A stretch of 63,841 nt of DNA, the filler included, from Hausera hauseri (lineage: Eukaryota): NCBI GenBank assembly GCA_046269625.1. It is 12 parts of 12 records of this genome, joined end to end, with 100 filler letters (N's around TTAATTAATTAA, not from the genome) between each part and the next. Parts side by side here need not be neighbours in the genome. Positions count along the whole stretch, not along the records: positions 32,166 to 37,354 come from JBJURY010312720.1; 11 more parts are not named here. One strand, given 5' to 3'. The notes below the pieces were generated by a model. The model had not been told where the DNA came from and searched no databases. It was given only the letters and a program-made list of their open reading frames with translations. Position 1 is the first letter of the stretch; every line of letters starts with the position of its first letter. The position numbers and the translations under genes were made by a program. Below are positions 4,553-63,841 of the stretch, piece after piece.

Positions 4553-4570
4553 GTTATCAATTATATCTTC

Positions 4571-26602: not shown

Positions 26603-26822
26603 ACAATTACGAAGGCTCCCAAAATATTCAAGGTATGCACAAATATTGAAGAAATGAGGGAAAGAACAGAGGAAAAGCTACGGAGGTTCATAAAAAAGGA
26701 AACGTTTGGGGACAGAAACGAAGATGTACGATTTACAGAAAGTCAAAACGAGAAACTCCATGAAGAGAGGATTTTTTTCCTTGGAAGGATTGACGGAAAA
26801 GATTACCACGTTCGATAAACTA

Positions 26823-27251
26823 CAAATATTTTGGATCTCTGTATTATGTGATGGTTACTTGATTGACGCAACAATACTTATGCAATGTTTACACACATTT
26901 TGTATAAATTGCATTTGTAAGTACACCGAAAGCAACCGTTATTGTCCGCTCTGTCAGTATTTAATTCAAGAAACCCGATTGGATAAAGGTTGTACGAAGC
27001 TAGATGTAGTTCTACAAAAGGCCATTTATAAACTTGTTCCAAAGCTTATGAAATCAGAAATGAATAAAATCAAATATGAATCCGGTATTTACCTTCTCTG
27101 TTCACCATTGATCAAAATCGATCAGGTGAAGAAACTGATTCTCAACAAATACCACCTCAATCCAATGGAGTACAACGTCAAGTTGTGGTACGATAGCGAT
27201 TGTCTTACTGCCGATATTGCATTTCAAAAAATGCTTTTAACAACAAATTGA
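26823..27251 (+). pseudogene. Polycomb group RING finger (PCGF/BMI1/Psc-like) fragment: RING plus partial RAWUL
   Basis: LCDGYLIDAT..QCLHTFC.NCI.KY.E..YCPLC...D..LQ..IYKLVP.L.K.EM matches the BMI1 RING, with the first Cys replaced by Ser. YLLCS...I..VKKLI.NK resembles RAWUL. Confidence 0.85.
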
Positions 27252-28575: not shown

Positions 28576-29931
28576 TAAAGGCGGATATCCAAGACGAGGT
28601 TTCAATTGTATTCGTACCATTAACAGTAGGACTAATAAATTGTGTCAGAAAATTTACCCGGTTATTTCGCGGCACTCGGATGAGAATTTTTTCAACAAGG
28701 TAATGTTGGTATTTCTATTCATTTCAAATTTTAAAAATTCTCACGATAATAATAACGGTTATACGTTCTGCCCCGTTTTGGAAAGGTATGCTGATTATCT
28801 GTACGTCGATACCAACTACTTTTTCGATATAACTTGCAACGACCTTCCGCTAACTCTGACCAGAATGGCATCTGTTCCCCCTCAACCAGGTTTACTGACG
28901 GCCTTTTGCGCACACCACAACATACCATTCTACTTAGCTGTTGAACCAAACAGATTTGCCAATCAGATAATGAAGAACCACAAAGGTATCACTCGACATG
29001 TCTGACATATCGGTATTCAGTCTTATCAAGGTTACTAATGCTATCATATTTCCAAGGCGCACAGTCAATAATAGAGGTAGCCGTACTACTACAGTACCTA
29101 TAATGCTTTTCTACAATGGACGTACCATGCTTCTCACTTCTCGACTGGCCTCTACTTCTGACAGATTGTACTGGCTACGCAACTCACTCAGAAATTCATA
29201 TTTATATCACTGTTTGGGTTACGCACCTATGTCTAATCATATTATCTATGGTCCAACAACAAGCATTGAGGGTCAACAAAATCAGTACGGGGCTCGAGAT
29301 AGCGTTTTTCTTGATGATCCATCATATGGTCATATTCCTGTTGATTTTTTCCGGCACTGTGAACAGACGAACGACGTTTCGTTCAGTGGAGATCGGCTGT
29401 TGGAATTGTACCTACACAATGTACTTAATAGTCGCATGGCCAATCAGGAACGGAGTATCACAGTTGTTTGCAAAAACCCAGTAGCAACGGTCATTAGCAA
29501 CCGGCGACCGGACTGAGTAATCGTCAGTGTTCGCTTCGGTATCAATTCTACTGATCCAGTAAGGTGCCGCAATATGTTGAGGTATACGGCAGGAAGGCAC
29601 ACATGCCCAATTGATTAACAAAGAGCCGCACTGTTGAAATCGGTTTATACAAATCAGAACTAACACATAACGACACGTCGCTTACTATCCATGTGGCGCC
29701 CATTAGGAATGCTAACGATATGATCGTTATCGATTTCATCAAAGTATTTACCCGCCTTATGGCATCATTATCTTGGCTGGCTGACAAACAAACGCTACTC
29801 AGAGGCAAGGATTTATTTGCTTTGTGCAAGCAACAACCAAGCAATCCCCCGTCCAATCTCAGAAGCGGTTCTAATATGGGCAATATTGCAAAATACGTGC
29901 AAAAAAGAAATACTGCTGAAGTAACATTGCA

Positions 29932-31968
29932 TACGAGGAACTCGGTTACCCCGAAGTTTGGGATTCGCCGCGGCGAGGCTGAAGTCCCGGCCGCCCATAA
30001 TATGCCATTAGGTCAGACGGCACCGTTCGCTGACGTCCCACCACACGCCCTTGGCTATACGCACACCTTATTTTTTGTTTTTTAAACAATAAACACATTT
30101 ACACAATTGCATCAATACACGCAATCATCACAGACTTCTACAACGCTATTTCTACTTTTCTTCACTCATCCGACTTTTATATCACACACCATAACACTAC
30201 AATACCCATCGCTGGAATCCTACTATCTCCTTCAACTTATATCCACCTCCATATACACTTCCGCATCCGTGGTGGCATGAATACGTCGCTAATCATAGAC
30301 ATCACGGATAAAACCACCACGACACCAAAATCTGTGATACTGCTTCAAAAACCCACCCCTACTTCTGCTAATAACTTTCACCTACTACCTCTTCCGCTCC
30401 TTTCCCTCACTGCACTGAATTTTTCATTGACAACCAAGGCTCTAGCAAAACTTAGTTGCAATTCCACCAATTGTGGCTACAAGCCAATAATGTCACCGAT
30501 TCCTTAACTAAGGCACACAACCTCCTCTTCTTACTCCCTAACAACATCAAAACACGAATCCATAACATTATCGAAATCTTTGAACTTCATGATCCATATT
30601 CACAACTCTTCAACGCTGTTCTTAAAAACACTGAACCCTGAATGGACACGATCATACAACGCTTCTTCCACGACAATGCTATAGGCGCACAACGACCATC
30701 AGACTTTTTACGCACCTCTCTAGAACATCTACAAACCCTCGGTATCACTAAAGAACACAGTTCAGAACTACTGAGCCACTACTTCCTCAACGCGTTACCC
30801 ATCCAAATTCGGGCTGTACTTGCCGTAGTGGAGGACTCCACGGCTCTTGAAAAATTGGCCGAATTATCCGATAAAACACACGACGTCCTACACTTAAATA
30901 CCCCACCAATCGTTTCGGCGACAGTTGCCACTACCGGTACCCCAAACAATAATACATCAATCGAGCAACAACTAAATCAGCTATGTGCCGAAAATACAGC
31001 ACTAAAAGCAATAATTAACAATATAAACAACAAATTAAACGAACTTTCCATGTCCCGGCGAAGGGATTTTGTTAATGACCGCGCCCATTCTGCATCTAGT
31101 AACCGGTCATCATCGCCTGCCCGGTCGTCAATCTGCTATTATCACAGCAGATTCAATAAGAATGCCAAGAAATGCAGCCTAGGGTGCAAATTTTACAACA
31201 AAAGTTTTTCTTCAGACACCGTTGTTTGCATCTATCATGCAAGGTTTAAAAGCCAAGCTCGTGGATGCATTTCAGGCTGCACTTGCAAACCAGGTACGAA
31301 TGATGGACGTGATACCTTTTTTTAATAGCCGTCCTAGTTCACCTTTTCAAAAAAACTAAATTTGCCGTCAGAAGTCACGTCAAACTCTGGCAAAGGTACT
31401 ACTTCACTTTCTGAATGTAGACACGTCTCTCTTGCTGTCTTTACTCTAAACGCTGCAATCACTGCTTCTACAACGCAGTCCGTTGATTTCCTAATTGATA
31501 CAGGTGCAGCGATTTCCTTATTACCATAAACCTTTCCTACCCAGAATTCACCATTCAGAATTAAGCCCTTATACACCGCTTCAGGTCAACCGTTGCACAT
31601 CTCTGTCATGGCTAAACTATCTTTTATCTTACCAAAATTTCCTTCACCTTTCCACTGGCCGTTCACAGTTGCTAACGTCCAGACGGCAATTCTATGGTCT
31701 GATTTTCTATAACATTATAATTTATTGGTTGACTGCAGTCAACGATGTCTGAGGAGCGGCATCCCTGGCAGCATTACTGAGCATATAAATAGCATTTCGA
31801 ATACCGCGCAGTCGATCGAGACGCGGCGATCAATTTTGAGAAAACCAAAAACTACTTTGAACTTCCGCAATATTTCATTCCGTAAATTTTTAAATAGTAA
31901 TATTGATATTCAATCGAGGTTCAATGTCGCTAATTGTGGTACTGTCACCAATCTTAATTCACTTGCAC
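29932..31968 (+). mobile_element. Gypsy family A copy 1: 5' LTR (29932-30265), gag, protease, truncated
   Basis: LTR ends TTCCGCA and is homologous to 41947-42287 and 55831-56165. Gag has CYYH.RF...A.KC...C.F. Protease has FLIDTGA. Confidence 0.9.
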
Positions 31969-32065
31969 CAAATATTTTGGATCTCTGCATTATGTGATGG
32001 TTACTTGATTGACGCAACAATACTTATGCAATGTTTACACACATTTTGTATAAATTGCATTTGTA
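31969..32065 (+). repeat. Second copy of the PCGF RING start
   Basis: 97 nt matching 26823-26919 with one mismatch, running to the contig end. Confidence 0.92.
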
Positions 32066-32165: not shown

Positions 32166-35100
32166 ATGAAAATAAAACTCAAAATGCCGCTAATCGCAGC
32201 ACAAGATATGACAATAGGAATTTTAGTGATAATCGGAACACATAATCCTTACAACAAAACAAGTTATATTTAGGATAGGAACCAAAATAACGACTGAAAC
32301 AATAAGAACCGATATACAGATAATCGAACTTTCGAAAATAGAAATAATGGAATCGATAAGCAAGCTCAACCGACTCAAAACAAAATGACAGGCAGACCCA
32401 AATCACCAGTAAATGAATACAGACGACAAAGGATCGACCGAGACGGGAATCTGATTTGTTATTCATGTAGTAAGGAAGGACATATAGCTAGATTATGCCC
32501 TAATCCACGAAGCGTATCATTTTCAGAGACCAGTAAAGCTGGCACGATAAACGATAATTTGGAAAGAATCTATGGAAAACAAGGTGATATAAGCATGATA
32601 ATCGAAATGCAAGACTTACGAATATATATAAGAAATATGGGCAAATCTAATAATCCACAAGTAATCAATGCCAGGAAGGAGTATGAAAAGTTGCAACTAA
32701 TGAAAGTTTATCATGGGTTAAGAGAACCAAAAACAGAGTATGAGAATGCTATAGCACCTAAGAATACTAACATGGACAGGAAAAGAAACCTAAATCAAGT
32801 AGTGGAAGAGGGAAAGCCGACTACGTCTCCAAGTGTAGACTTGGACGCAGATACTGAGGTCGTGTCTCGAAATAATGACAAAACAACAGACAAGGTTGAG
32901 AGTGAATTCATTGGCCCACTAATACTCAAGATAACGAAAAATAGGGGTAGAAGCCCTTCACTTAGGAAAAGGTCGCGAACTCGTTCACGATCCCCTATTA
33001 GGAAGGATTTAAAAAAAGAGGAAGATTTCATCATCACTTTAAGATATGAAACGGAGTAAAACACTCATGTTATAACCCAAGGCTTTCCAAAAGCAACAGA
33101 TATTTCAAATATTGATGAAATTAATGAAATATGTCCATTACCACCTAGTAAAGAGGAATCAGAAGAGGAAAAATCTGTTAAGTTTTGGAGGATTAGAAAA
33201 TCTTGGAAAAATGCAAACGAACTAACCAAAATAAGGGATACAATAAATGATCCGGGAAGGCTGCATGAGAGTCTGCAGAAACTCCAGCCGATGAGCAAAC
33301 AGTTGGATATCTCCGGAAAAGAACAACAATTCATAGAAAAGCTATATAAAAAGCTTAAACCCGGCTCTCAGAAAAAGGAAAAAACACACCTTATGAACTC
33401 CAAGAGACGCCGCAATAATTGATTGGAAGTTGGCAAAATAAATTAAAACTGTGGACAAGGTGTGGGATCAACTTTACGAAAATATGGTGGAGTAGAAATG
33501 AGCCGTTTCTCGATCAGGTTAATCAAGCGCAAGGACTATTAAACGCACTAAAAGATAACCCAAAATTGAAACGCGTAAGACGTAACTTAGAAGGATTGAT
33601 ATATGAGATCGAAGATGCGATAATTTCTTATCTGCATAACAAGCCAGTTTATGAACTGACTAATGCCGACCTAGAGATATTGGGCATAAACCAAATCGAT
33701 ATCCCCCTTTAATAGCAATGTGCAGCCTGATAAAGGATAACCCTCGAAAATACTCAGATTTAAAATTACGTATTGAAAAAGAAAATGACATACGAACTAA
33801 AATCAACAACTTCAGGAGCGGTGCAGTTCACCCTGAAGGAACAGAAGCACAGAGAATAGCACGCGCTTGTCTTCTCAAGTTAGATGAGTATAAAGAAGAA
33901 TTCAACTACATGAAACATATTATAGAATTTGTAAGAGGGCCAGATCACGAACTAAAAGAAGCTCTTGGGACATTAGACGAAATAATCTACGCTAAACCAG
34001 CAATATCTAAACACCTAAAGAAGTGGATAGAATTGTTACCTTCCATAGCAGGGATAATAAATAAAAGACTAAGGGAATTCGCTATGGTTAAGCCTATAAT
34101 GAGACACCAATTGGAAGAAATGTTACTAGATGTCGATACAATGGAAGACAAAGCGAAATTGCGAATTAAATTCGAATCGTTTCGCGAACTGGAATTTATG
34201 AGCAGAGATCAAGATCAAACAACACTAAGAGAGATATATATTATGATAGAAGAAAAGGAATTCTACAGAAAAAGAAACAAGCTAGGTGATCTTCAGCGAA
34301 GTTTAGCGAACATCCGTTGGGAAGGGATACAGAGCTTAATGCAAAAACTGTTGAAGGAAATCTCAACGCAGGAAATTGAAACATTGGAAGTATGTAACGA
34401 TCACCGGATTGCTCTGGAGCAAACACTACAATATTTACAGAACCCAGCAGAATGGACACCAGATTTCGACCTACATTGCCTCACCGAACTAACGGAAATT
34501 AGGAAGGATCTTCAGTTGACGGGCGACAAAGCCAAGTTAATAGGCAGGTTAATGGACGCAATAGATCAGGACGCTGAAGTATTAAATCAAACGCACAAAT
34601 TAATCCTACTATTAACAGAAATGGCAGAAATTGACGAAGTAGTAGCCAGACGACTAACAAATCGAATACGTCTGGTAAAAGAAACCCGGTTACGCTCCGA
34701 GAAAAGACAGCACGAGCCAAACGAATTACTGAGGGAAACAGACGTTTATAAGAACAAGTATTCCTTTACGGAATCTGAAATTAACGACAAAATGGAATTT
34801 ATACAAAGATGGCAAAGGGACAGAATCGCAGAAGTGACTAACTACCAGGAGAAAGCCTTGATGCAACCAGAAGAAATGTGCCGATTAATAAAATTCATAC
34901 AACAAGCTTGTGGAAACCGAGATGGATTTAGGATATCCATAATGAAAACATTGCAACCACAGATAAAAGAACTACACGAAAGAGTCCAGGATGGACACGC
35001 GGCATTAATGAACTACGAGTTACCTGACGCAGATAACGATGCCGAGTGGGATGAATGTCTCCAAGGTTTAAACGGTCAAAGTCAAAGAACTCCAATACAA

Positions 35101-36218
35101 ATTTATGAGTCACCTACTGGTACCCAGAAGACGAAATTCGATGTGCAAATGCTACTTGATCCCACGCTAGCCAAAAGGAATTGAGCAGTGTGTTAAAATT
35201 AAACATAAGTGAAGATAGGTTAAGGAAATTGATTCCAACCTTGACCAAGCTATCCAATGAAAACACCGCATACAGCGCTGTACCCAAGCTCCTAATAAGA
35301 GAATACGCCAAACTATTGAAAAATAAACCAGAGGCGGAAATTAAAGTGAAAGTATCATCCGAAGGGATGGACGACGAGGAATTTGAATGCACTTCCTATA
35401 CCACCGTTGGAGATATAAAACAGCGGATAATAGATAAGGATGGTAGGAAAGGATTTAGTTACCGACTCTATTTCAGGGGCAGAATACTATACGACCTAGA
35501 ATCCTTGACATACATAGGGATTATACCCTTCGAAGAAAATCAAATAATAGCAATAATTGCCAGTGAGCAAACCAAAGATGAAGCCATGAGGAAGGCACAT
35601 ACAGAGCACTGCGTTGGGAGAATCATGGGGATTAAGTATGCCGCAATGTATTTCGGATACTTACAGACTGATGATGACAAACCGCAATACGATAGAAACT
35701 TAGTCCCTCTAAGCGAAATTTCACCACCGATGAAAGCGAAACGACCGGTCGGAAGACCGAGAAGAATAAAAGAAATTGACTACAATGCTGACCTAATTAG
35801 GGAATTGAGACAACTATCGGTACCAACCCCGAGTTCAGATAATGAAGAACTTATTGAGCTAATGAAAGACTTAATTATGATAGTCAATTATACCGGCCTC
35901 CAAGGCGATATAATATCCGAGAAGGAATGACTAATATATAATATAGCCCGGACAATGAAAACTTCACGATTTAAATTATCTAAAAGCACCCTCCCTAATG
36001 AAACAGTAATTGATGGAATTATGATAGACAATACGATGGAAGAATTAAAGAAAGTCTTGATATAATTAGCAGTAAGAACTAACCCTCTCCGGGAAAACGA
36101 ATTTGACAAGATAATTGGATTAGCTAGAAAAGCTGCAAGAAGGGTACTTAAAGAGATAAAATGGACTAAATTATTCGAAAAAGAGGAGGATACAAAAGGG
36201 ACTAATAAGATAGAGGAC
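32166..36218 (+). pseudogene. Extended Gag polyprotein: N/R/D-rich linker, CCHC knuckle, RS-rich segment, long helical region, ubiquitin-like domain, AT-hook-like motif
   Basis: CYSCSKEGHIARLC at 32457-32498. ORFs 32385, 33419, 33718 and 35181 join into one frame when compared with the paralog at 60027-63841. Confidence 0.8.
35337..35561 (+). other. Ubiquitin-like (beta-grasp) domain
   Basis: IKVKV...TTVGDIKQRIIDKDG....RLYFRGRILYD.ESL..IGI parallels ubiquitin TI..VK.KI.DKEG....RLIF.GK.L.D..TL. No C-terminal GG. Confidence 0.75.
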
Positions 36219-37354
36219 ATGATACGAAATATCTCTCCAAACAAAGGAACCGAATCCAATTGGTTAATCAACTTGCTGACGATAATAATGTTAGTAAATC
36301 AGATAGGAGCAGTCACTATATACGACTGCGACAAATTCAAGGTGGGTCAAAAATATTTCTTGATGGACTTAGAAACATGTGAAGATGCGAGATCCCACAA
36401 GCTCGAGACAGCAGAAAAGAAATATATGCTATACCAACAACGTGAATTAATTGCAATGGATGCGACGGAATGCATGATACGGAAATCCCGCAGCGTATTT
36501 CATTGTGGTAGTATGCACGGACATTCTTCAATAATCGAACCAACCACACCATTAATCCCAATAAACGTGGATAGACAGCACTGTTTAGGAGCCCGCATAA
36601 CCAGAAAAATGGTTTTGGACAGTATGAAGTTAGAGGCCCATGCAGGAAAGATAATTAGAGCTTACAAAGTGGCAGTAGGAAAATTAAACATGCACACCGG
36701 TTATTGCGTCGGAGTAGAATATGACACCAGAAAGGGAAATGAAGCAGGGATAGTAGTTGCGGATTTTTACGAAACCGAATTAAGATTCCTAAAAGCGATG
36801 TTTCATAGTGTTACAAAACTATTTACCGAAAATCAAAATGTTGCATTCAAGATGGTGCTTGCACGTTCCGAAGCTCAGTCGTTGTATGGAGCCCACTTTC
36901 CAAGAGAGATTGCAACTTCATCAAAATCAAAGAGTTAAAGTTTAACGAGACAACCGGAAAACGTTATACAAATAAATTACACACTAATACTAGATCAAGG
37001 GAAGACGTAATAGAACATCCCACACCAACGATCTTGATATCGGGTGCACATGGGTTAAAGTTTATTAGAAAGGATATGTTAACACGTTGTGATGTAGTTA
37101 TGTATGCCACCAAATACGAAGCGTTTTCGTAGCAGAAACAGAAATTGAAATGAAAACGTACGATTTAAAAACATGAAATGTGCGGATTGAGGATTACCTA
37201 AAAAATCGAGACGACTATTTCTATTAGAAAGGGCAGACCGGAATAGCAGAACTATACCACAAAATGATAACGAATGACTGCAGATTAGATACTGAAGTCA
37301 TGAGAACCAAACTGGCCTTAATTTATGCCAACCCAGAATTGGCATCACTAATTA
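36219..37354 (+). pseudogene. env: Chuvirus-like / gB-type class III fusion glycoprotein (env), 3'-truncated by the contig end
   Basis: Signal-like WLINLLTIIMLVNQIGA, then YDC, C, Q...A.EC.I.....FHCG..H.S.I and G.C.G.EY. After frameshifts: C..QDG.C......VW......C, RCD..MYAT and YL.N..DY......LYH.M...DC.L.....RT.LAL....P, the cysteine pattern of Chuviridae G. Confidence 0.8.
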
Positions 37355-38257: not shown

Positions 38258-41200
38258 TCAATACCATGCCTGCACATCAGAATGCATTGAGGGCAAAATT
38301 ACTTGTCGGTGGAGTAAACGAAAAGTGGCTTTAGCACCAGGATAATGTAGCGAATGTACACTGTTGAATGCTTGCCTTTGTAAAGATGGTGCAAGAATTA
38401 TTACGGAATGACATGGTTTGGAAGTGTCTAAAGCCACGCCGTCAACGATTGTGCAAGACTTGAAAGAATTAAGCATGTCCTGAGGTGGCTGGTTCTGTTG
38501 AAGCTGAGCTTGCATAAAAAACGGTAAAAAATTGATCGCACTAACGAACCTAGATTTGCAACTAAATTATTAACCCCGTTAATATGTTTTATGTCGAATT
38601 TAAATGTAAAAAAATAAGATATCTGTCGTTCTTGGCGTGTGGAAGGATGTTTCATAGTTATGATGTTAAGTAAGGATTGGTGATCGGTTTGTATAATAAA
38701 ATGGCGCGCGACAAGTAGGTGGGAGAAATGCTTTAAAGCAAAAACGATAGCCAATAATTCTCGATCGAACGTTGAATATTTAGTTTCAGGTGATGTTAGC
38801 TTGCAAGAGAAAAATTCTAGCGGTTGATTTTCGCCTTTGTAGATCTGGTAGAGAAGAGCACTTACTGCAGTAGTTGAAGCGTCTGTGGTAATGATGAGTT
38901 CCGCATCAGGCTTTGGGAAAGCGAGAATGTCGACGGTCTTAATTCCGTCTCGTATCTTATCAAATTTGTCTACCAACTCAGGTGTCCACTGGATTGGCTG
39001 ATGTTTTTTGCCACCGTTTAAGTGTGCAAATGGTGCTGTCAATTCAGAGCAATATTATACATATTTATGTACAAAGTGTATTGTACCAAGGAAGCTGCGC
39101 ATTTCGGTGGTCGTACATGATAACTGATTATTTTTAAGAGCTTCAACGCGGTCTGGTTGAAGAGAGTGGCCGTGTGGTGAAATAAAGTGGCTCAAAAAGT
39201 TGATGCGTTTTTTGAAGAAATGGCATTTGTCAAAATTGACTTGGAGATTTTGGTGGTAACGGCGTTGGAATATTGCGCAAAGGTGTTCCTCGTGTTGTTT
39301 GGCCGAAGAAGAAACGATCAGAATATCATTAATGTTAGAGTGCGCAAACGGAATATCTGAGAGAATTGAGTCGACATGGTGCTGAAAAGTCTGTGCGGCA
39401 TTTCGCAAACCGAACGGCATATACAGGTACTCGTAGAGGCCAAAAGAAGTAGTGACAACAGTTTTTCTGCCTGCGGGTGCCACCGGTATTTGGTGGTATG
39501 CCTTGGCCAAATCTATAGTCGAATAAATGGTAGTTGAATTAAGGCGATACAGGATGTCCTTAATGAGTGGTAAGGGTACGCATCCATGATGGTCAAGTTG
39601 TTCAAATTGCGGTAGTCACTGCATGATCTAAAAGTACTGTCCTTTTTTGTACAACATGACGACCAAAAAGATTTGTAACGGCGTACAATGCAGGAGCGTT
39701 CCAGTTCGAGGAATTCGTCATCTACGGCCTGTCTACAACGCGGTGACAGTGGTCGTACCTTTTTGCGTATTGGTCGTTGATGCTGTTTGATTATGTGATG
39801 TACAGTGCTGTTTGTAGGGGTAAACGAACGATCTTTTTAAGTACTCGTGGACATAATGTGGTAACAAATTGCTGTAAAGTTGTAGGCAACTATGAGAGAT
39901 TCTGTGATGATGTTGAAACAACTTGAGTAGTAGCAGCTGCAATTTGTGAATTGTTTGGTGATATGCAGTCAAGTGGTATTTGGTGTAAGATGGTCGAATT
40001 TAAAATTGTATTTGATGAAGTCATTTTGTCGAGTAAATTAAGTTTGTTGACATTACCACAGTTGGCGACATGGAACCTCGACTCGATTTCAATATTATTA
40101 TTTGAAAATTTACGGAGTGAAATATTACAAAAATTCAAAGTAATTTTTGGTTTTCTGAAAATTGATCTCCGCATCTCAATTGACTGCGCGATAGTCGAAA
40201 TGCTATTGACATGCTGAGCAACGTTGCCAGTGATGCCCTTCCTTAGACATTGTTAACTGCAGTCAACCAATAAATTATAATGTGATGGAAAATCAGAGTC
40301 TAGAATTGCCGTCTGGACGTGAGCAGCTGTGAATGTCCTGTTGATAGTAAAGGAAATTTTGGTAAGATAAAAGATAATTTAGTTATGCCAGAAATGTGCA
40401 GCGGTTGACCTCAAGTGGGGTATAAGGGTTTAATTCTGAATGGTTAATCTTGTACAGGAAAGGTTTGTGGAAATAAGGAAATTTCTGCACCTGCATCAAT
40501 GAAGAAATCAACGGATTGCGTTGTAGGATCGGTGATTTCAGCCTTTAGAATAAAGACGGCAAAAGAGGTGTGCCGACATTCAGAAGATGAAGTAGTGCCT
40601 TTGCCAGATCTTGCCGTGAATTCTTGTGGCAAATTTAGTTTCTTTAAAAAGGGGAACTAGGACGACTATTAGAAGAAAAGATAGCACGTCCGTCGTTGGT
40701 ATCTGGTTTGAAAGTGCAGCTTGGAACGCATTTACGAGCTTGGTTTTTAAACTTTGTATGCTAAGTGAAAACAACTGTGTCTGAAATGAACTGTTTTTAT
40801 AAAATTTGCACCCTATGCAGCATTTCGTGGCATTTTTATTCAATCTGCGGTGATAGTAACAGATAGACGACCGCGAAGGCAAATGATGATCGGTTTCTAG
40901 ATGCAGAATGGGCGACGTAGGCAACAAAATCCCTTTGCCGGGACGGGGAAAGTTCGTTTAATTTGTTGTTAATAGTGTTAATTGTTGCTTGTAGTGCTGT
41001 ATTTTCGGTACGTAACTGATTTAGTTGTTGCTCTATTAATGTGAGTAGATCGCGTCTCTACCATCCCGATCTCAACATCACTTATTTATCCATAAGATAT
41101 TTATTATAAAAGTTTATATAATATTTATCTCCTTCATTCGGGAAATGAGCCTTATTTTCCTTTTTTTTGAATTTCCTGACTTTCTGTTGGCTGTTTACTG

Positions 41201-42287
41201 GATTACCTTTGAATTAAATTTAAACCTTAATATCCGTTTAAATTCCTCCTCTCAACTGATGTGTTATTGTTTTGGATACCGGTAGTGGCAACTGCTGCCG
41301 AAACGATTGGTGGGGTGTATAAGTGTAGAACGTCGTGTGTTTATCGGTTAATTCGGACAATTTCTCAAGAGCCGTGGAGTCCTCCACTACGGTAAGTAGG
41401 GTCCGAATTTGGATGGGTAACGCGTTGAGGAAGTAGTGGTGCAGTAGTTCTGGATTGTGTTCTTTAGTGATTCCAAGGGTTTGTAGATGTGGTAAAGAGG
41501 TGCGTAAAAGTCTGATGGTCGTTGTGTGCCTATAGCATTGTCTTGGAAGAAGTCTTGTATGATCGTCTCCATTGAGGGTTTTGTGATCTTAAAAACAGCA
41601 TTGAAGAGTTGTGAATATGGATCAGGAAGTTTAAAGATTTCAATAATGTTGTGAATTCGTATTTTGATGTTAGGGAATAAGAAGAGTAGGTTGTGTGCTT
41701 TAGTTAAGGAATTGGTGACGTTATTGGCTTGTAGCCACAGTTGGTGGAATTGCAACCAAGTTTTGCTGGAGCCTTGGTTGTCAATAAAAAATTCGGTGCA
41801 GTAAGGGAAAGGAGCGGAAGAGGTAGTAGGTGAAGGATTCTTATCGGACGTAGGAGTGGGTTTTTGGAGCAGTATGACAGATTTTGGTTTCGTGGTGGTT
41901 TTATCCGTGGTGTCTGTTGTTGGCGATGAATTCATACCACCACGGATGCGGAAGTGTATATGAAGGTGGATATAAGTTGAATAAGATTGTATGGTTCCCG
42001 CGATAGGTAGTGATAACTGTTGCGCGTGAGGTAGAAAGCAGATGAGCAAGTAAAAGTGCAGATAGTGTTGTAAATTTCTACGGTGTTTATGTGCGATGTT
42101 TTAATTGTGTAAACATGTTCATTATTTAAAAAAAAGGAAAATGGAAGATGGTATGGATGTATAGCCAGGGACGTGTTGCTGGGCGCCAACGAAAGTTGCC
42201 GTCCAACCCAATGGCACAGTGTGGGCGGCCGGGACTTCATCTTTGCCGTAGCAAATCCCAAACTTCGGGGTGACCGTGTTCCCCGCA
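38258..42287 (-). mobile_element. Gypsy family A copy 2: LTR (41947-42287), gag, protease, RT, RNase H, start of integrase; decayed
   Basis: LTR TGCGG...CCGCA. Motifs FIDAGAEIS, AKAYHQIP, MPFGLRNAAQTFQ, TTDAS, YSTFDRELLA, TDHQ, HSLH.PG. Confidence 0.93.
41040..41254 (-). mobile_element. Solo LTR of family B nested in family A gag
   Basis: TGTGAG...CTCTCA, homologous to 16459-16679. Flanks ATTAA and ACTGA each differ by one base from the empty-site ATTGA seen in the copy at 30955-30962. Confidence 0.85.
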
Positions 42288-42747
42288 TCGAGCTCCATCG
42301 CGCCTATAGTAGTGATTGTAAATTTTTCTGTTTGACATATTTAATACACTCGTATTCTCTGATAGTTTTACCGACGTTATTCAAAATTCTTCCGTGTTAT
42401 GTAATATAATCGCATTTTGTGGTATATGTAACGTCGTGGTTTATTGTAACATATGGTGCTAATGTCAATATTGTTTCCAGATTCTTTAAAATTTTTTTGA
42501 TTAATTTTACCTATGTATGCATCCTATGTATTGAAGGGTCAGGCGATACACGGTGTGCAACAGTTAGTATGTGCCATAAAAAATTATTTTTCTCCAACCT
42601 CTGGTGGACGCGTTGATGTCGTGCACTTAGTTGAGCAGGGATGTAGACATTCAAATACTCCCTTATTGGACGGAATGTTGCCACATCGATACTACCAGAC
42701 CGTATTTTAGGACAATTGCTAGATAAAGATGTACTGGGTACGAAACT

Positions 42748-44847: not shown

Positions 44848-45150
44848 NNNNNNNNNNNNNNNNNNNNNNNNNNNNNNNNNNNNNNNNNNNNTTAATTAAT
44901 TAANNNNNNNNNNNNNNNNNNNNNNNNNNNNNNNNNNNNNNNNNNNNGTGTATTAATTTTAACCTTAGCTCAACAACATTTCAACACAACATATTCTCAT
45001 TAAATAGACTCATTATCATTAGCACAAAAATACTGATTGGTACTTAATTATCCACAACCATGCCTGCTACGTGTGTGATTCATATATCAGTGTTACCCTT
45101 GATTACTAGAGCATGTGGTCTAGGAGCCAGCCGAAGGGGCAGTCTTCCTC

Positions 45151-47139
45151 TCACGCGTTGTCGTCGTCTCCGTACGGGTAGTACAGAGGTGCGTCGGTTC
45201 CAGATCCCTCTTGTTGCTGAGTCATCTGGAACGCCAGGGGTGGGTGAGGTTCTGAGCCAGCCCTAAGTGCCTGGGAGATGGTCCTTAAACACAGCATCCG
45301 CAGAATCGGAAGCCCACACAAACAACAACAACTCATAACAATCACGACGGAAATCACCGGCATCAATATGGCAGAGATGGCACTCTTCCACCCACCAAAG
45401 AGTCTTGCAAACCATCCTTCTACCTCTGCAGAAGTACCTGAATGACTGACCATCTCCTCAGACAAGGACCTCAGACCCTTAATCGCCCTGGTGAATGTCC
45501 CCCCAGTTCCTGTATTCCCGGGAATGAAGGTACAACACGAAGCCCCAAAAAATGCACAAACCCCACTTTGTTCAGCCAAAATATAATCTAATGCAATTCT
45601 ATTTTGATAGGCCATGAGGGAGGTGGCAGCTAACTGCTCGTGCGCAGCCTGAAGGGCATCTCTAGTCAAATTATTTAACCTCTGAACATTAAAGTGTATG
45701 TAATTTATTCTGTCCACATTCTTATTCAGTGTGATCCAGGGGAGGATGCTTTCAAAACCTGCAGCCACCTGATCCACTAATTTAAATTCCGTAGGGACAC
45801 CTCTCGGGATCCCCACCGAATCGAAGTAGGCTGGACTATCTTCATAGATGTCAAAAGCACGCTTAAATCGTCTCAATTCTACAACCTGCTTGTCCTGGGG
45901 GACCCGGTGGGACGTCAACTCCTCCTCAGTGATGTTCACAATTCTCACAGGCGAGACGAGGGAAACCTCGGCACACACTCCTTCCCAATCTGCTGGCAAA
46001 ACATTCAACAGCCTGTTACCACCACAATACCAGAACACATCTGCTCTAGAAACTCTCAGCCTAGTAGCATTACTCCAGGATGTGACATCAATCAATTTAC
46101 TACACCAAGACTCGTCCACTTGTCCAACATCCACCTTCCTCTGCCGCCCCCTCCTGGCCAAACAAGTGTAGTCGTTCTTCACTGCATTGAAGATGGGCGG
46201 GGAATCTGTCTCAGGAGACATAGGGAAAAATTTCTCCAAATGTTTACAACGAGCCGAAGGGTTCTCAACAACATGCAACTCCAACATGCAAAAAAATTTT
46301 GATTCATCACTCAGCGGGGAAGGAACAGTCAATAAAGCAGGCCGGGCCTGAGCACACACAACGCAGTCAGCCACTTTGGCTTGGCTGGCTGCATCTTGCA
46401 CATACTTTACCCAGTAGTTCGCCTGAGTGAACCCCGTTTCCACAGCAAGCTCCGCGCTCGGTGCCACGTCAACTTTCAGCTCCAAATCACTGGGCTGTAT
46501 CACATGAATAATAAAATTACCAACTGGGTCACGCCCAAAGGCAGTCGCCCCCATCAAGAAAGATCCAATATCTGTGATCTGTGGATTAATCAAAGTCAAA
46601 AACATAGGATTACAAGTAAAATCATTTTTACAGTCTTCTTTGGTCTGGCCTCTCCTAATCTCCATGCGGTCTCTAAGCGGGTTCCGGCCATAGTCCTGAA
46701 ACTCATAGCCACACCCATACTCACCCCCCATCATAGCCATGATGTGAGTCGAACACACATACACCTTGCCTTTGCTGTAAGAAGCCTGGTTTGAATCACA
46801 TTTTATCACCTCGCAGAGATCAAACAGAATTGTAGCACTCTGTCCCTGCACAAAACTGAATTTGTACACCTCTCTCTGCACACCAGACCGTCTCCGCCTC
46901 TCTCCCAACTCAGCCTGTTGGAAAGATGTGTTGTCAACATTTTGCATTTTTTCAAAATCAAAATCAAAAGACGGCGGAGTTGTTGAGTTAGTCTGGTTAT
47001 CAGGTATGTTAGGTTGTGATTCAGTTTCATTTCTGATTTTCTCCATTTCTTTGTTAGATTCAAAACAAGAAACACAACAAACAAAAGAAAACAAAAACAA
47101 AAAGAACAAAAGATTTTTCTCACACCCCCTTTTTGCCAT
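45151..47139 (-). CDS. env: Intact gamma-type retroviral envelope (662 aa), teleost ERV-like
   Basis: N-terminal signal peptide, CVVC (CXXC), furin site RRFKR, immunosuppressive domain YQNRIALDYILAEQSG, CX6CC (CAFFGASCC), transmembrane helix and Cys-rich tail. Confidence 0.95.
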   Translation of the reverse strand: MAKRGCEKNLLFFLFLFSFVCCVSCFESNKEMEKIRNETESQPNIPDNQTNSTTPPSFDFDFEKMQNVDNTSFQQAELGERRRRSGVQREVYKFSFVQGQSATILFDLCEVIKCDSNQASYSKGKVYVCSTHIMAMMGGEYGCGYEFQDYGRNPLRDRMEIRRGQTKEDCKNDFTCNPMFLTLINPQITDIGSFLMGATAFGRDPVGNFIIHVIQPSDLELKVDVAPSAELAVETGFTQANYWVKYVQDAASQAKVADCVVCAQARPALLTVPSPLSDESKFFCMLELHVVENPSARCKHLEKFFPMSPETDSPPIFNAVKNDYTCLARRGRQRKVDVGQVDESWCSKLIDVTSWSNATRLRVSRADVFWYCGGNRLLNVLPADWEGVCAEVSLVSPVRIVNITEEELTSHRVPQDKQVVELRRFKRAFDIYEDSPAYFDSVGIPRGVPTEFKLVDQVAAGFESILPWITLNKNVDRINYIHFNVQRLNNLTRDALQAAHEQLAATSLMAYQNRIALDYILAEQSGVCAFFGASCCTFIPGNTGTGGTFTRAIKGLRSLSEEMVSHSGTSAEVEGWFARLFGGWKSAISAILMPVISVVIVMSCCCLCGLPILRMLCLRTISQALRAGSEPHPPLAFQMTQQQEGSGTDAPLYYPYGDDDNA

Positions 47140-47193
47140 CTTAACACAGTTATGATGGTCAAAATGAAAACTGGTTTTTTTCTCTTTTTTTTT

Positions 47194-49647
47194 TTAACAC
47201 AGTTTCTTGTTTCTCAAATTATAGGTTGAGTTCACAGCAGGTGTGGAGTTCTGTTCAGATGAGGGCCTTCTTTCTGCAGATTTTTGTTTTTTCACAACTG
47301 AAGCCCTCAGTTTTTTTCCGTTGCTTTCAACCTGCTGCACAGTTTTTTCAGCTGGAGCCCCAGCTTTGCAACAATGAGTTTTATGAATCCACCTGCTTAT
47401 TTTTTGGTCAGTTAGCCAAACCTTCAGGCAGTGAGATGTTGTCTCTGCCACTTTAAAAGGACCTTGCCACCTGGGGTTGCGCCAGTCGAACCTGGCAACC
47501 TTTCTCAGAACCCAGTCTCCTGGTTCCACAACAGCACAGTCTTCTGGGGCGTCGTCTTTCTGAGCAGCCACAATCTGTTGAGAGATGCTCATGACAGTAT
47601 TTCTTAACCGGGTCATATACTCTGACACAGCTTCATGCTGCAACTGTAAGTTATTACATTCAGTAGGCATTGTTATCAGTGGACATGGCATTCTCCTGCC
47701 AGTCAAAAGCTCATGAGGACTCACATTTAAAGACCCACTTGGGCTGGAATGCAGATTAAACAAGACTACTGGAAGTGCCTCTAGCCAGTTCAGCTTCGTG
47801 TCTGCACATATTTTAGCCAACCCCTCTTTTATAGATCTATTTGCTCTCTCTACCTTTCCCTGTGATTTTGGATGAAAGACTGCTCCAAATTGATGTCTGA
47901 TTCCAAACATCTGCTCTATTTTACCAAGATCCTTATTAGAAAAATGTCGAGCATTGTCAGATTTTATCACAGATGGCACTCCAAACCTTGGAACCACCTC
48001 ATTTGTCAACCATTTTATCACCTCAGCTGCTTTTTCTGTTCTTGTTGCTACAGCCTCGATCCATCCTGAAAAACTGTCAACACACACCAAAAGGAACCTC
48101 TTCCCTCTCACTCTGTTCTCACTGCCCATGTCTGTAAAATCTATACAGATCTCTTTCCATGGCGCTTCAGGAACAGGAAATGCACCTAACCCTGCTTTTA
48201 AGACAGCTTTTGGATTATGCTGGCAACAGATTTCACACATTTCCACAAAATACTTAGAGATTAATCTAAGATTTGGGTGCCACCACACCTGAGTAATTAT
48301 GTCTAGCATCTTTGAAGCCGAACCATGTGCTCGGCTGTGAGCTTCTTGACACAACATGCTAACAAGCTTCTCTGGGGCAACCACCTTACCCTCATGGTTC
48401 CTGTACAGCCCATCACCATCTTTCTTAGCTCCTCTGTCCTGCCACAGCTGCTTTTCTGACTGAGTAGCTTCGTTCTGCAACTCTGTGATAGCCTGAACAT
48501 CAAATTTCTTCCTCAACCAGTCCTCTGGAGTGTCAGCTCTTCCTACCTGAACCATCTGTGTTTTATTTACATAACCAGCACAAGCCTTTGCTGCTCTGTC
48601 TGCTTCAAAGTTGCCCATGGAGATTACATCACACCTTTTCTGATGACCTCGGCACTTTAATACAGCTACTTCTGCTGGCTCTCTCAGAGCATAATACAAC
48701 TCCAAAAGGTGTTGCAAATGCTGGACGGGCTTCCCCGTCGCTGTCACAAATCCCTTCCTTTTCCAGTGACATAATTCTATATGGACACATTTGTGGACGT
48801 ATTCTGAGTCTGTGTACAAGTTTACCCTCTGACCTCTTGCCAACTTACATGCTTCAATGACCGCTCGTAATTCTGCAAGCTGAGCTGAGGCTGGTTGGTT
48901 TAGTAAAGAGGTATGCACCACTTCAAACTGTCCCTGTTGTTCTGCCACTACTGCACAAGAGGTCACCAGAGAGCCTTTGTCAGATTTATGTGAGTGTCCA
49001 TCTGTAAAAAGTTGTCTGTCTGGATTGTCCAAAGGGTCTCTGAAAATGTTGTCATGAATTCTCATTTCATGATTAGTAGTTTCTACACAGTCATGATCCT
49101 GTTCTGTCGTCATATTCACTGCCATGTTGACTCCCTCAGCTGTGAAATGAATATTAGGTCTGTCTAACAGCTGCCTTATGTTTTCTGTTCTCTGTGGTGA
49201 AAATGTGAATGCCTGTGAGTCAATAAAAGCTTTTACATCATGTAAAGTGTGCACAATGACTTGATTCCCCATTGTTACATGTGATGTTTTCAGAATAGCC
49301 TGTGATATTGCAGCTACGTGTCTCACACATGACGGGTGACCCATTTGAACTTGGTCGAGTTTCGCACTGTGATACATCAGAACTCTTCTTGTTTTTTCTT
49401 CCTTTTGATACAGTACTGCATTAACAAAACCTGCATCCTCATTCACATCCAGGTGAAATGGTTTTGAATAATCTGGAGTCTGTAATGCACAGGCGTTAGC
49501 CAGTGCCTGCTTCACTTCTACAAAAGCTGTCTCTGCCTCTTCTGTCCAAATTAAAGGGGAAGCATAATTTTTGTACCCAGCTGCTGTTATCAGTTCTCTC
49601 AAAGGGAAGACTTTTGAGCAAAACGCCGGAACATAAGCTCTGCTGTA
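47194..49647 (-). CDS. pol: Intact retroviral pol, 5'-partial (RT thumb/connection, RNase H, integrase), epsilon/class I-like
   Basis: Frame open to the contig end (YSRAYVPAF...PLREL). RNase H: FTDG, SAQLAEL, YTDS, GN..AD. Integrase: HHCC and D-D-E (IDFTDM, SDNARHF, GKVERAN). Confidence 0.95.
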   Translation of the reverse strand, partial: YSRAYVPAFCSKVFPLRELITAAGYKNYASPLIWTEEAETAFVEVKQALANACALQTPDYSKPFHLDVNEDAGFVNAVLYQKEEKTRRVLMYHSAKLDQVQMGHPSCVRHVAAISQAILKTSHVTMGNQVIVHTLHDVKAFIDSQAFTFSPQRTENIRQLLDRPNIHFTAEGVNMAVNMTTEQDHDCVETTNHEMRIHDNIFRDPLDNPDRQLFTDGHSHKSDKGSLVTSCAVVAEQQGQFEVVHTSLLNQPASAQLAELRAVIEACKLARGQRVNLYTDSEYVHKCVHIELCHWKRKGFVTATGKPVQHLQHLLELYYALREPAEVAVLKCRGHQKRCDVISMGNFEADRAAKACAGYVNKTQMVQVGRADTPEDWLRKKFDVQAITELQNEATQSEKQLWQDRGAKKDGDGLYRNHEGKVVAPEKLVSMLCQEAHSRAHGSASKMLDIITQVWWHPNLRLISKYFVEMCEICCQHNPKAVLKAGLGAFPVPEAPWKEICIDFTDMGSENRVRGKRFLLVCVDSFSGWIEAVATRTEKAAEVIKWLTNEVVPRFGVPSVIKSDNARHFSNKDLGKIEQMFGIRHQFGAVFHPKSQGKVERANRSIKEGLAKICADTKLNWLEALPVVLFNLHSSPSGSLNVSPHELLTGRRMPCPLITMPTECNNLQLQHEAVSEYMTRLRNTVMSISQQIVAAQKDDAPEDCAVVEPGDWVLRKVARFDWRNPRWQGPFKVAETTSHCLKVWLTDQKISRWIHKTHCCKAGAPAEKTVQQVESNGKKLRASVVKKQKSAERRPSSEQNSTPAVNSTYNLRNKKLC

Positions 49648-55483: not shown

Positions 55484-55830
55484 AGCGACCGTACATTGGT
55501 AATGTCACAGACAATTTCGTGGTTAGGTAAACCATTTTCGAATAGAAAAATTCCGATCAACCGCTTGAAATCGCAACTGACTATGCGGATAAAGCTATTC
55601 AAAAGCTGAATACTGAAATAGATGATTGCGTTGTCGCGTACATCAACAAGGTTATTAACCAGTATAAGTAGCTGTACACACAAGAGAAACCTATTGTCGT
55701 TATGGAGAACATCAAGCGAGAGATTCAAATGAGATTATATGCAGGTCGAATTAAAGAGAAACAGTTATTTCAGCCATCGTCGTAATGCCCATGGTGTTGG
55801 CAATTCTCAGTCGTACTTTATCAAACTGCA

Positions 55831-60026: not shown

Positions 60027-63000
60027 TTAACATTGTTTATTTTTCAATAGTTTAGCGTATTCTCTTATTAAGAGTTTAGGTACAGCTCTGTATGCGGTAT
60101 TTTCGCTGGATAGTTTAGTCAAGGTTGGAATCAATTTCCTGAATTTATCTTCGCTTGTGTTTATTTTCAACATACTACTCAGTTCCTTTTCGGCTAGTGT
60201 AGGGTCGTGTAGCATTTGTACATCGAATTTCGCTTTCTGTGTACCAGTTGGTGATTCACAAAAATGTATTGGAGTTCTTTGGCTTTGCTCGGTTAGACCT
60301 TGGAGATATTCATCCCATTCGGCTTCATTTTCTGCGTTAAGTAACTCGTAGTTCATTAGTGCCGCATGTCCGACCTGGACTCTTTCGCGTAATTCGCTTA
60401 ATTGCGGCTGTATAGCTTTCATGATGGATACCCTAAATCCGCCACCGTTTCCGCAAGCTTGTGTATCAGCTTTATTAATCGACACATTTCTTCTGGTTGT
60501 ATCAAGGCTTTTTCTTGATAATTAGTCACCTCCGCGATTCTGTCTCTTTGCCATTTCTGTACAAATTCCATTTTGTCGTTTATTTCTGATTCCGTAAGGA
60601 AATACGTGTTCTTATAAATTTCTGTTTTCCTTAGTAATTCGTTTAATTCACGTTGTCTGTTCTCAGAGCGTAACCGGGTTTCTTTTATCAGACGTATTCG
60701 GTTTGTTAGTCTTTTCGCTGTTACTTCGTCAATTTCTGCCATTTCTGTTAATAGTGAGATTAATTTGTACGTTTGATTTAACTTTTCGGCGTCTGGATCT
60801 ATTGCATCCATCAGTCTACTTATGAATTTGGCTTCATCGCTCGTCAGTTGTGGATCATTTCTGATTTCCGTTAGTTCGGAGTGGCAATGTAGGTCAAAGC
60901 CTGGTGACCACTTGACTTGATTCTGTATATATTGCAGTGTTTGTGCGAGGGCAATTCGGTGATCATTACATACTTCTAATATTTCTATCTCCTGGACAGA
61001 GATTTCCTTTAACGGTTTCTGTATTAGATTCTGTATTCCTTCTCAACGGATGTTTATTAAACTTCGCTGGAGATCACTTAGCTTATTTCTTTTTCTGTAG
61101 AAGTCCTTCTCTTCTATCATAGTATACATTTCTGTTAGCGTTGTCATATCTTGACCCTGGTTCATAAATTTAAGTTCTCGTAATGATTCGAATTTAATCT
61201 GCAATTTTACTTCGTTTCCATTGTGCCGATATCTAGTAGCATCTCCACCAATTGATGTTTCATTATGGGCTCAACCACAGCGAACTCTTTTAGTCGTTCG
61301 TTAATCACTTTGGCTATAGAAGGTAACAAGTCTATCCACTTCTCCAATTGTTTAAATATTGTTAGTTTCGCGTGTATTATTTTGACTAATACTGCAAAAG
61401 CTTCTTCTAGTTCATGATCTGGTGCTCGTACAAATTCTATGATTTGTTTCATTTAATTGAATTCTTTCTTATATTCATCTAACTCAAGAAGGCAAGAGCG
61501 TATTATTCTCTTTACTTCTATGTTTTTAGAGTGAACTACCCCGATCCTTAAGTCATTAATTTTGGCTCGTATCCCATTTCCTCTTCCGATACGTGTTTTT
61601 AAATCCGGGTATTTCCGAGGTTTATCCTTTATTAAGCTGCACATTTCCAATAGAAAGAAAATATCGGTTTGGTCTATACTCTAGGTCGGCATCACTCAGT
61701 TCGTTTACTGGCTTATTATGGAGATAAGAAATTATAGCTTCTTCTATCTCATGCATCAATCCTTCTAAATTACGCCTTACGCGTTTTAGTTTTGGGTTGT
61801 TCTTAAGTGTGTCTAACAGTCCTTGCGCTTGATGGACCTGATCCAGAAACGGTTCGTTTTTATTCCACCATATTTTCGTAAAATCGATCTCACTCCTTGT
61901 CCACAATTCTAGTTTCTTTTGCCAACCTTTTAGCAAACCTTGCGGCACTTCTTGCAGTTCGTATGGTATGCCTTTTTCTCCTTTCTGGAGGCCGGTTTTA
62001 AACTTCTTATACAACTTTTCTATGAATTGTTGTTCTTTTCCTGAAATGTCCAACTGCTTGCTCATCCGCTGCAGTTTTTGTAAGCTGTCAGTCAGCCTTC
62101 CGGGATTGTTCGAAGTGTCTCTTATTTCTGTTAGCTCATTCGCATTTTACCAAGATTTTCTGATCTTGGCAATTTTAATAGACTCTTCCTCTTTTGACTC
62201 TTCCTCAGTAGATGGCAACGGACATATTTCATTTATTTCATCAATGCTTTGAATGTTCGTTATTTTCGGAGTGTCTAACTCTGTTTCATCTCTTAGAGTG
62301 ATAGTGAAATCTTTCTCTTTTTCTATATCCTTTTTGATAGGTGATCGTAAACGAGTTCTCGACTTTCTCATAAGAGAGGGGCTTCTACCTCTATTTTTTG
62401 CTATCTTAAGAATCAGTGGGCCAATGAATTCGCTTTCAACCTTATCTGTTACTTTGTCCTTATATTTAGGCGCAACCTCAGTATCTGCATCCAAATCTAC
62501 GCTTGGAGGCGTAATTGGCTTTGCCACTGGATTTAGGTTTTTCTTTCTGGCTATATTAGTATTCCTGGGAGCTATAGCCTTTTCGTATTCTGTTTTTGGT
62601 TCTATTAATCTATGATAAACTTCCATTTGATGCTAATTTTCTTTGTATTCCTTCCTAGCCTTGATTACTTGTGGATTATTAGATTTGCCCATATTTCTTA
62701 CATACCTTCGTAAGTCTTGAATTTCTATAATCATGCTTATGTCACCTCGTTTCCCGTAGATTCCTTCCAAATTATCTTTTATCATGCTAGCTTTATTAGT
62801 CTCCACAAATGATACACTTCACGGATTAGGGCATGATCTAGCTATGTGACCTTCCTTACCACATGAATAGCAAATTAAATTTCCGTCTCGACCGATCCTT
62901 TGTCTTCCGTCTTCATTTACTGGTGATTTGGGTCGATCCATCGTTTGGCCTTGAGCTAGCTGAGCTTGCTTATCATTTCCATTATTTCTAAAACTTCAAT

Positions 63001-63841
63001 TTTCTATATGTCGATTCTTGTTACTTCTGTCATTATTTTGATTTCTATTCGGATTATAACCTGTTTGGTACGTATTTCGGTTGTCATTAAAGTTCCTATT
63101 ATCATATCTGGCGTTGCGATTGGAGGCATTTTGAGCTCTATTCACATAGCTTCGGTACTTATTATCTTCGTTAAATCTTCTATTGTTCCTGTTTCTATCT
63201 CAGTTGTCACGATCATTATTTTTGTCATACGTTTCATTCTGTCTGGCATATCTATCTAATGTTATTTCCAAGGTGTGAGCTAATTGTAATGCCGTCTCGA
63301 AATTGTCTGGTCGGGCCAAAATTAGTTGCTTGACTAAATCTCTAGACCATGTGCCGTTTATTAGCGGCGTTTTCATCATGATGTCTAAGTCTGGCGGGCT
63401 AGCCTTTTCTGCCGCTTCACTTTCTTCATTTGTCTTTCCTTTTGTCACGTTAGCTATCCTTAATATGTTTACATAACTATTAGCAAGTTTCTTTAATTCA
63501 AATGCAAACTGAGTAACCGATTCACCCTTTTGTTGTGTTCTGTTGTGGAAGGCCATAAGCTTCTGTTGTGGAGTAACTGTCGGCAATAGTTTACGATTCA
63601 GAGCTTTTATTACAGAGGACCATGATTTCTTCTCATCATTGGTAAGTTCGCTATGGGCATCTGCAGCCAGGTTTTTCAGATATAATGATAATCGTTTGAT
63701 CACGACTTCGGGGGCAAGACTGGCACCTTCTACGTGCAATTTATAGGTTCGCCAAAAGTCATTTAGTCCGTCTGGGTAACCGTCGTATGCGGGTAAGTTT
63801 AACCAGTCGAATGTAAATATATCAAGTTTTTGAGCTATCGC
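60027..63841 (-). pseudogene. gag: Second copy of the extended Gag polyprotein, including the capsid domain
   Basis: LPAYDG....DFW and QQKGESVTQFAFEL (Gypsy capsid), CYSCGKEGHIARSC (62831-62872), then colinear with 32385-35330. Similarity stops just before the ubiquitin-like domain. Confidence 0.88.

Follow-up and report, generated by a model that had tools for sequence, protein, structure and literature searches.

Organisation of the element and its paralog

The window analysed here is a stretch of 63,841 nucleotides from the genome of Hausera hauseri (NCBI GenBank assembly GCA_046269625.1), composed of 12 contigs of 4-7 kb each with N-spacers between them. The element under study makes up the whole of one 5189-base contig (JBJURY010312720.1, positions 32166-37354), and carries a Gag-type zinc knuckle, a ubiquitin-like (Ubl) domain, and a glycoprotein (Env) of the chuvirus/gB type, all encoded on one strand and without an intervening pol motif. 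Both ends of the element are contig ends, and the contig stops about halfway into the glycoprotein, before the membrane anchor. A Pfam scan of the other contigs found mostly retroelement fragments on contigs unrelated to one another; therefore, adjacency across the N-spacers carries no meaning.

Relatives were collected using an HMMER search of 1.84 billion representatives, and all 38 hits were scanned for domains (34 with the glycoprotein family PF24664, 3 polyubiquitins, and 1 without a family). They are cited below by P numbers, together with the metagenome contig L001. The features were as follows, with dN/dS denoting the ratio of nonsynonymous to synonymous substitution rates:

32166..32456 (+), N/R/D-rich region between capsid and knuckle, at the contig start; broken by stops and a frame break near 32244; colinear with the paralog
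32457..32504 (+), CCHC zinc knuckle (nucleocapsid); Pfam zf-CCHC, E 1.8e-4; matches the knuckle regions of P0002 and P0006
32505..33709 (+), linker following the knuckle, in which a basic RS-rich patch and a short helical part are found; dN/dS 0.20, 0.10, 0.17 against the paralog; interrupted by stops at 33057 and 33416 and broken in frame near 33374 and 33709
33710..35172 (+), domain of about 490 amino acids, likely helical; open frame with a frame break near 35172; no homolog found
35175..35555 (+), conserved module of three short helices followed by a ubiquitin-like domain (Pfam ubiquitin at 35343-35522), without a C-terminal di-glycine
35745..35768 (+), GRP motif, which we take to be AT-hook-like; the same motif lies ahead of Env in P0002, P0004, P0006, P0011, and P0040
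35835..36190 (+), helical bundle in the slot of the relatives' Bcl-2-like domain; contains stops 35928 and 36063; Bcl-2 likeness not detectable
36261..36311 (+), internal signal or signal-anchor helix of the glycoprotein; in-frame ATG at 36219; the PF24664 alignment begins at profile position 5
36312..37354 (+), N-terminal half of the chuvirus/gB-type class III glycoprotein, truncated where the contig ends, ahead of the membrane anchor; broken in frame near 36850 and 37130 and by stops at 37174 and 37225
60035..63841 (-), second copy (paralog) on another contig, independently decayed; capsid, knuckle, linker, helical domain, and start of the module, then unrelated sequence

The hydrophobic signal-like stretch at 36261-36320 (best 19-mer 1.97 at 36264) begins 3.8 kb from the knuckle at 32457. 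The initial annotation, made from the sequence alone, had described this interval as coding-like and free of pol motifs, and had read the locus as a Gag running into a chuvirus/gB-type fusogen with no pol between them. Both descriptions held. The motifs D[ST]G, [YF]xDD, LPQG/MPFG, and HHCC were absent from the contig in all six frames, no pol family of Pfam was found in the 9 pieces of the contig that were scanned, and tblastn with the full polyproteins of the relatives matched the contig only in the knuckle and Env (5 of 13 queries listed). As the annotation had also stated, the Ubl and PF24664 regions share one frame that is interrupted only by stops 35928 and 36063.

The coding signal was assessed against the paralog, of which 60035-63142 aligned to the element with 79.6% identity over 3164 nt. 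In five segments, dN/dS was 0.20, 0.10, 0.17, 0.19, and 0.10, so that values of 0.10-0.20 extended over 3 kb, with 0.51-3.0 in the other frames; for the helical domain of about 490 amino acids the ratio was 0.19 over 480 codons, with 0.82 and 0.96 in the other frames. None of the 8 listed stops was common to the element and the paralog. Judged by these substitution patterns, the region from the knuckle to the Ubl domain is real coding sequence, under purifying selection as far as the paralog reaches. The earlier proposal that the paralog supplies the capsid and repairs the upstream frameshifts was borne out for the capsid, which matched P0002 at 3.6e-15 and P0012 at 4e-8 (the Pfam Retrotrans_gag match was weak, E 0.0015, under the cut-off), and for the breaks at 33374 and 35172, both of which the paralog reads through; the help ends at 35328 with the alignment, leaving the Ubl core and stops 35928 and 36063 outside its reach. 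This continuity of the paralog also led us to reject programmed frameshifting at either of the two breaks.

The glycoprotein and the position of pol

The glycoprotein was identified by Pfam PF24664 in 36066-36935 (E 2e-15). A structure model spanning 35160-36935, with X at the two stops, had a mean pLDDT (predicted local distance difference test) of 62 and about 90 in the Env core. Its Env part was best matched by chuvirus-like glycoproteins (E 1e-13 to 1e-8) with weak matches, from E 0.003 upwards, to GP64, gB, and thogotovirus GP, and the full ectodomain of the relative P0003 gave a fold match to herpes simplex virus (HSV) gB at E 5e-13. The invariant cysteines were present in the Env alignment, from which no solved structures related by sequence were found. 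The assignment of the glycoprotein to class III (chuvirus/gB-type), anticipated in the initial annotation as a resemblance to Chuviridae G and herpesvirus gB, stands on profile and predicted fold. The C-terminal membrane anchor of Env was seen in the relatives, and the contig of the element ends before that point. In an Env tree (31 rows, midpoint-rooted), the element was placed among retroelement-borne Envs with support 96/89, apart from the stand-alone P0034 and P0035.

The relatives show where pol may be expected. Ten of the hits were longer than 1000 amino acids, and a protease followed Env in eight of these (weakly in P0012); reverse transcriptase (RT), RNase H (RH), and integrase (IN) followed Env in four (P0004, P0009, P0017, P0025), and a CCHC knuckle preceded Env in the same chain in five. 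A capsid-like region, CCHC, Env, protease (PR), RT, RH, and IN were all carried by the single chain P0025, and the cluster member P0040 repeated the Env-then-pol order. The metagenome contig L001 encodes Ubl-Env-PR-RT-RH-IN in one frame of 3426 amino acids that is open at the 5' end. Pol in these relatives is of the Ty3/gypsy type, with RT_RNaseH and integrase domains, and the protease is present in 1-7 motif copies. An RT, RH, or IN before Env was found in none of the 38 hits. The first protease motif of P0009 is found about 350 residues beyond the point that corresponds to the end of the element contig, and pol of the element would be expected to begin at least about 1 kb downstream of that end. 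P0002 itself ends inside Env, on a contig of 4.8 kb. P0022 and P0031, in which Env is joined to MRP-L47 or an FAD-oxidase, were treated as gene-calling chimeras.

Other copies of the family were found in one public run, possibly the source sample, which holds 0.27 of the sampled words. Contigs of that run (11,123, of which 8,833 were under 95% alike) covered all 30 bins of the element, and single contigs bridged 35692-36228 and 36156-36481. Together with the paralog, they establish the element as a multi-copy dispersed family. Among the 40 listed of 1572 difference rows, stops 33416, 35928, and 37174 were not common to other copies; at position 35928, which the annotation had suspected of being a sense codon elsewhere, 71 contigs were available and the stop was not shared.

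We consider it very probable that the element is a decayed copy of a Gypsy-type family in which Gag is followed by accessory domains and a gB-type Env, and then by PR-RT-IN in the same frame past the contig end (Gag-Env-Pol). The order was deduced because module-sharing relatives continue into pol and the contig ends mid-Env. The very large polyprotein that the annotation had proposed is the most likely product, given that the frame is open from the module to Env in the five relatives that share the module. Among its further options, a pol moved downstream is what the relatives display, with a protease after Env in 8 of the 10 long chains and one frame in L001; an element of structural genes only, or with pol supplied in trans, was not supported, as pol is expected past the contig end and the long relatives continue into protease.

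This last option was weighed as a non-autonomous family, in which Gag, accessory domains, and Env are followed directly by a 3' long terminal repeat (LTR) and Pol is provided in trans by an autonomous Gag-Env-Pol partner. No pol was seen on the contig of the element or on that of the paralog, P0021 has the module and terminates after Env, and the rotifer TelKA2n is described as an env-bearing non-autonomous family without most of pol (PMC5408684). The contig nevertheless ends before the expected pol, by the spacing seen in P0009, and L001 as well as 8 of the 10 long relatives continues into protease, which leaves this arrangement improbable; the selection acting over about 1000 codons agrees with an autonomous lineage but does not require one. 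In a second arrangement, which we rate as marginally more improbable again, 36063 would be the true end of the Gag-accessory protein, and Env, followed by pol, would form a separate frame starting at the ATG at 36219, for example on a spliced RNA. That ATG is in frame 14 codons before the signal helix, stop 36063 does not appear among the 40 listed of the 1572 difference rows, no protein spanning it was found by word-index searches with the Ubl-to-signal region (30-324 amino acids; 325-1036 amino acids), and a separate Env frame might ease the 1:1:1 ratio of Gag, Env, and Pol. Against this, the 51 codons from 36063 to the ATG are open and were modelled in a single helical bundle that also takes in residues preceding the stop, the frame from module to Env is open in all five module-sharing relatives, and three other checkable stops of this copy are private.

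In arthropods, chuvirus glycoproteins inserted on their own next to Gypsy fragments are described as common (PMC10084718, PMC7642597), and the glycoprotein of this copy could in principle be an unrelated chuvirus-derived insertion of that sort, placed in frame downstream of a Gag-like gene. The contigs of other copies, however, bridge the Gag-Env junction, relatives at about 30% identity keep the order of module, signal, and Env, and, with the caveat of its long branch, the Env of the element groups with retroelement Envs and not with the stand-alone P0034 and P0035. Since the junction is family-wide, a separate insertion, which the initial annotation had named as an outcome contrary to its reading, is largely refuted and has only the slightest probability.

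Several observations weigh against the Gag-Env-Pol reading. The relatives are distant (about 26-35% identity to the element), and the element sits on a long branch in the Env tree. P0003 and the module-bearing P0021 end just after the Env anchor, although the matching part of L001 (69% identical) continues. Own-family DNA downstream of Env was not found in viral contigs, JGI metagenomes, or GTDB genomes, where L001 was the sole relative found; no LTR, primer site, or transcript was seen for the element, the ends of which are contig ends, and L001 has no LTR-size repeat. Stop 36063 was not among the 40 listed of the 1572 difference rows. In addition, stand-alone short Env hits are uninformative on order, so the count of relatives leans to fused forms.

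If the Gag-Env-Pol reading is correct, one polyprotein would be made, of which capsid, nucleocapsid, and accessory domains would remain in the cytosol. The internal signal helix would thread Env into the lumen of the endoplasmic reticulum (ER), where signal peptidase would free the N-terminus of Env and leave the Gag side tethered to the membrane by the signal helix. The C-terminal anchor of Env would return protease, RT, and integrase to the cytosol, such that Pol might be packaged via the Env tail with no Gag-Pol frameshift, and the protease of the element would then separate the parts. This topology was drawn from the hydrophobic pattern of the relatives and general membrane-protein biology.

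Accessory domains between nucleocapsid and Env

The distance from knuckle to Env is about 1290 codons in the element and 234-626 amino acids in five relatives. A large part of it is the helical domain of about 500 amino acids, for which no homologs were found in the ESM Atlas, PDB sequences, the relatives, or longer proteins (887-2530 amino acids). Its sole Pfam row, Med16_bridge, was dismissed (E 0.02, below the cut-off).

The module of three helices and Ubl domain was recognised by profile. Pfam ubiquitin matched 35343-35522 at E 1.1e-5, with 25.5 bits at a cut-off of 25.4. A module profile was built, without the sequence of the window, from six helical-plus-Ubl segments of relatives, which were picked by eye and of which two had already been flagged by the window sequence, so the choice was not blind. 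With this profile, the 35160 frame obtained 39 bits across residues 6-131, a span that takes in the helices, and none of 891 scored shuffles was as high (best 8.6); the polyubiquitin P0029 received 12.8 bits. Leave-one-out searches recovered P0006, L001, P0002, P0021, and P0009, each in its expected position and with per-sequence E values from 5e-16 to 2e-6, and P0015, also part of the profile, was left out of the count for its weak recovery (E 0.014). The module is thus common to the element and five relatives, three of which (P0006, P0009, L001) continue into protease or full pol. In the structure model, helices at residues 5-54 were followed by beta-grasp-like elements. Atlas neighbours of the Ubl domain were of the ubiquitin family with scores under 0.9, which is a lead only, and the two fold lists obtained with the 592-residue model, both taken up by other domains, contained no ubiquitin chains. 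A C-terminal di-glycine was absent from the Ubl domain of the element and from the ends of the five aligned modules. For this reason a docking role is favoured over cleavage, and we tentatively suggest that the Ubl domain may serve to dock host machinery of budding or turnover that reads ubiquitin, and may not be a cleavable ubiquitin.

A further domain was recognised in the relatives shortly ahead of the Env signal, where six of them (P0002, P0003, P0007, P0021, P0032, L001) carry a segment with a GGW motif. In L001, the Bcl-2-like segment lies at 800-1270, and three of the six relatives also carry the helical and Ubl module. Pfam Bcl-2 matched P0003 and P0032 at E 0.001-0.002, below the cut-off, and did not match the L001 segment alone. 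The model of P0003 residues 3-80, which covers the C-terminal half of the domain only, aligned with Bcl-2/Bcl-xL at Z 7.7 (a Z under 8 being middling), with a root mean square deviation of 2.6 over 78 aligned residues, and every non-gB row among the top 16 of its fold list was a Bcl-2-family chain. Motif, fold match, and sub-cut-off Pfam matches suggest that these six relatives hold a Bcl-2-like domain before the Env signal.

The corresponding slot of the element (35835..36190) gave no such signal. The GGW motif was absent, the Bcl-2 profile scored the slot no better than shuffles (254/498 and 122/995 as high), 333 of 500 shuffles were as high in summed pairwise Bcl-2 scores, and hhalign returned none. 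A fold search with the slot found generic helical bundles only, at Z 8 or less, and neither fold list of the 592-residue model, again filled by other domains, contained Bcl-2 chains. More speculatively, and with rather less confidence than we attach to the docking role, the elements could form a clade of single-frame Gag-Env-Pol errantiviruses with captured host-control domains (the Ubl module and the Bcl-2-like domain). The signal helix would double as the tail anchor of Bcl-2, such that one cut would yield the fusogen and an anchored anti-death Bcl-2, and the element would be a member with a diverged Bcl-2 slot and a new 500-amino-acid domain.

Other retroelements and relation to known systems

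Additional features were recorded in the relatives. Several protease-like repeats per chain occur in L001:2-10282, P0004, P0006, and P0040 (3 in L001; 7 motif hits in P0040), and P0040 has an ankyrin match; L001, P0004, P0006, and P0040 show more signal- or membrane-like segments after integrase. L001:10617-12107 is a separate frame of 496 amino acids after the polyprotein with a DEDD-type exonuclease match (RNase_T, E 1.4e-5). Extra ORFs, including DEDDy exonucleases, are described for rotifer LTR elements (PMC5408684). P0009 is filed as a protein of a Flavobacteriaceae metagenome-assembled genome, on a 9-kb contig, and is likely eukaryotic contamination.

Elsewhere in the window, the contig at 6275-11234 holds a piece of the same Env family at 6276-6515 (-), 41-50% identical to the relatives; a Gypsy pol (+), itself decayed, meets it head to head, as in nested or inverted elements. 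This pol was rejected as that of the element, the neighbouring Env piece being on the opposite strand and only 29% identical to the Env of the element. Another gag at 18500-19450, with a capsid 44% identical to that of P0002, could belong to one more element of the present type. A different Gypsy-like gag-pro family is represented by three copies (67-84% alike) at 29928-31973, 40023-42288, and 55827-56756. A vertebrate-type endogenous retrovirus unlike the other contigs was found at 44948-49647 (-), where the frames for pol (RNase H, integrase, MLVIN_C) and for a TLV_coat env are long and open. A RING finger and a weak RAWUL domain, presumably Polycomb RING-like, lie at 26694-27251 between retroelement pieces and beside a 97-nt repeat at 26823 and 31969. 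Long (-) frames of about 530 and 214 amino acids at 3926-6174 matched no Pfam family.

Non-canonical endogenous retroviruses of nematodes reportedly have one continuous gag-env-pro-pol frame and are said to be restricted to nematodes. An Env before pol and an RNA-virus-derived glycoprotein, the first shared with the relatives and the second also with the element, are attributed to these nematode retroviruses by Sacco et al. (2022), as cited in PMC13524379. The Gag-Env-Pol order is itself already published for errantiviruses of the Ty3/gypsy group that carry an HSV/gB-type Env, in work that follows Sacco et al. and covers Nematoda, Bryozoa, and Platyhelminthes (Chary and Hayashi, 2026; PMC13524379), and the arrangement at our locus is probably explained by this known rare order together with the contig end. 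Like those elements, the present one has Gag directly before a gB-type Env, is multi-copy, and has relatives with pol after Env. It differs in the roughly 1290 codons between knuckle and Env that hold the helical and Ubl module, and the main text of that paper does not contain the terms 'ubiquitin', 'fused', 'single ORF', or 'polyprotein'.

The capture of a chuvirus-type glycoprotein by an LTR retroelement is also known from Anakin, a BEL/Pao element of mosquitoes in which env lies downstream of the polyprotein (PMC7642597); in the element, by contrast, Env follows Gag with no pol before it, and pol of the relatives is of the Ty3/gypsy type. In sequence profile and predicted fold, the glycoprotein resembles glycoprotein G of Chuvirus/Monjiviricetes (PF24664) and herpesvirus gB, but unlike in chuviruses it lies within a retroelement frame, downstream of an internal signal, and no nucleoprotein or RNA-dependent RNA polymerase was seen. 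No literature report of Ubl or Bcl-2 domains in LTR retrotransposons was found among the listings of the library searched, with the main text of PMC13524379 not searched for Bcl-2, and the figure supplements and deposited sequences of PMC13524379, Sacco et al., and Repbase may already contain them. The accessory cargo between nucleocapsid and Env appears undescribed, and only these extra domains look new.

Accessory domains seem to accumulate between nucleocapsid and Env, with the Ubl domain in the element and five relatives and the Bcl-2-like domain in six. Ubiquitin-like and Bcl-2-like accessories are typical of complex viruses. The arrangement offers a testable picture of one frame that would cross the ER membrane twice, with Gag tethered by the Env signal and Pol by the Env tail. 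If functional, the accessory domains would argue that these invertebrate elements still act as infectious viruses that manage budding and cell death.

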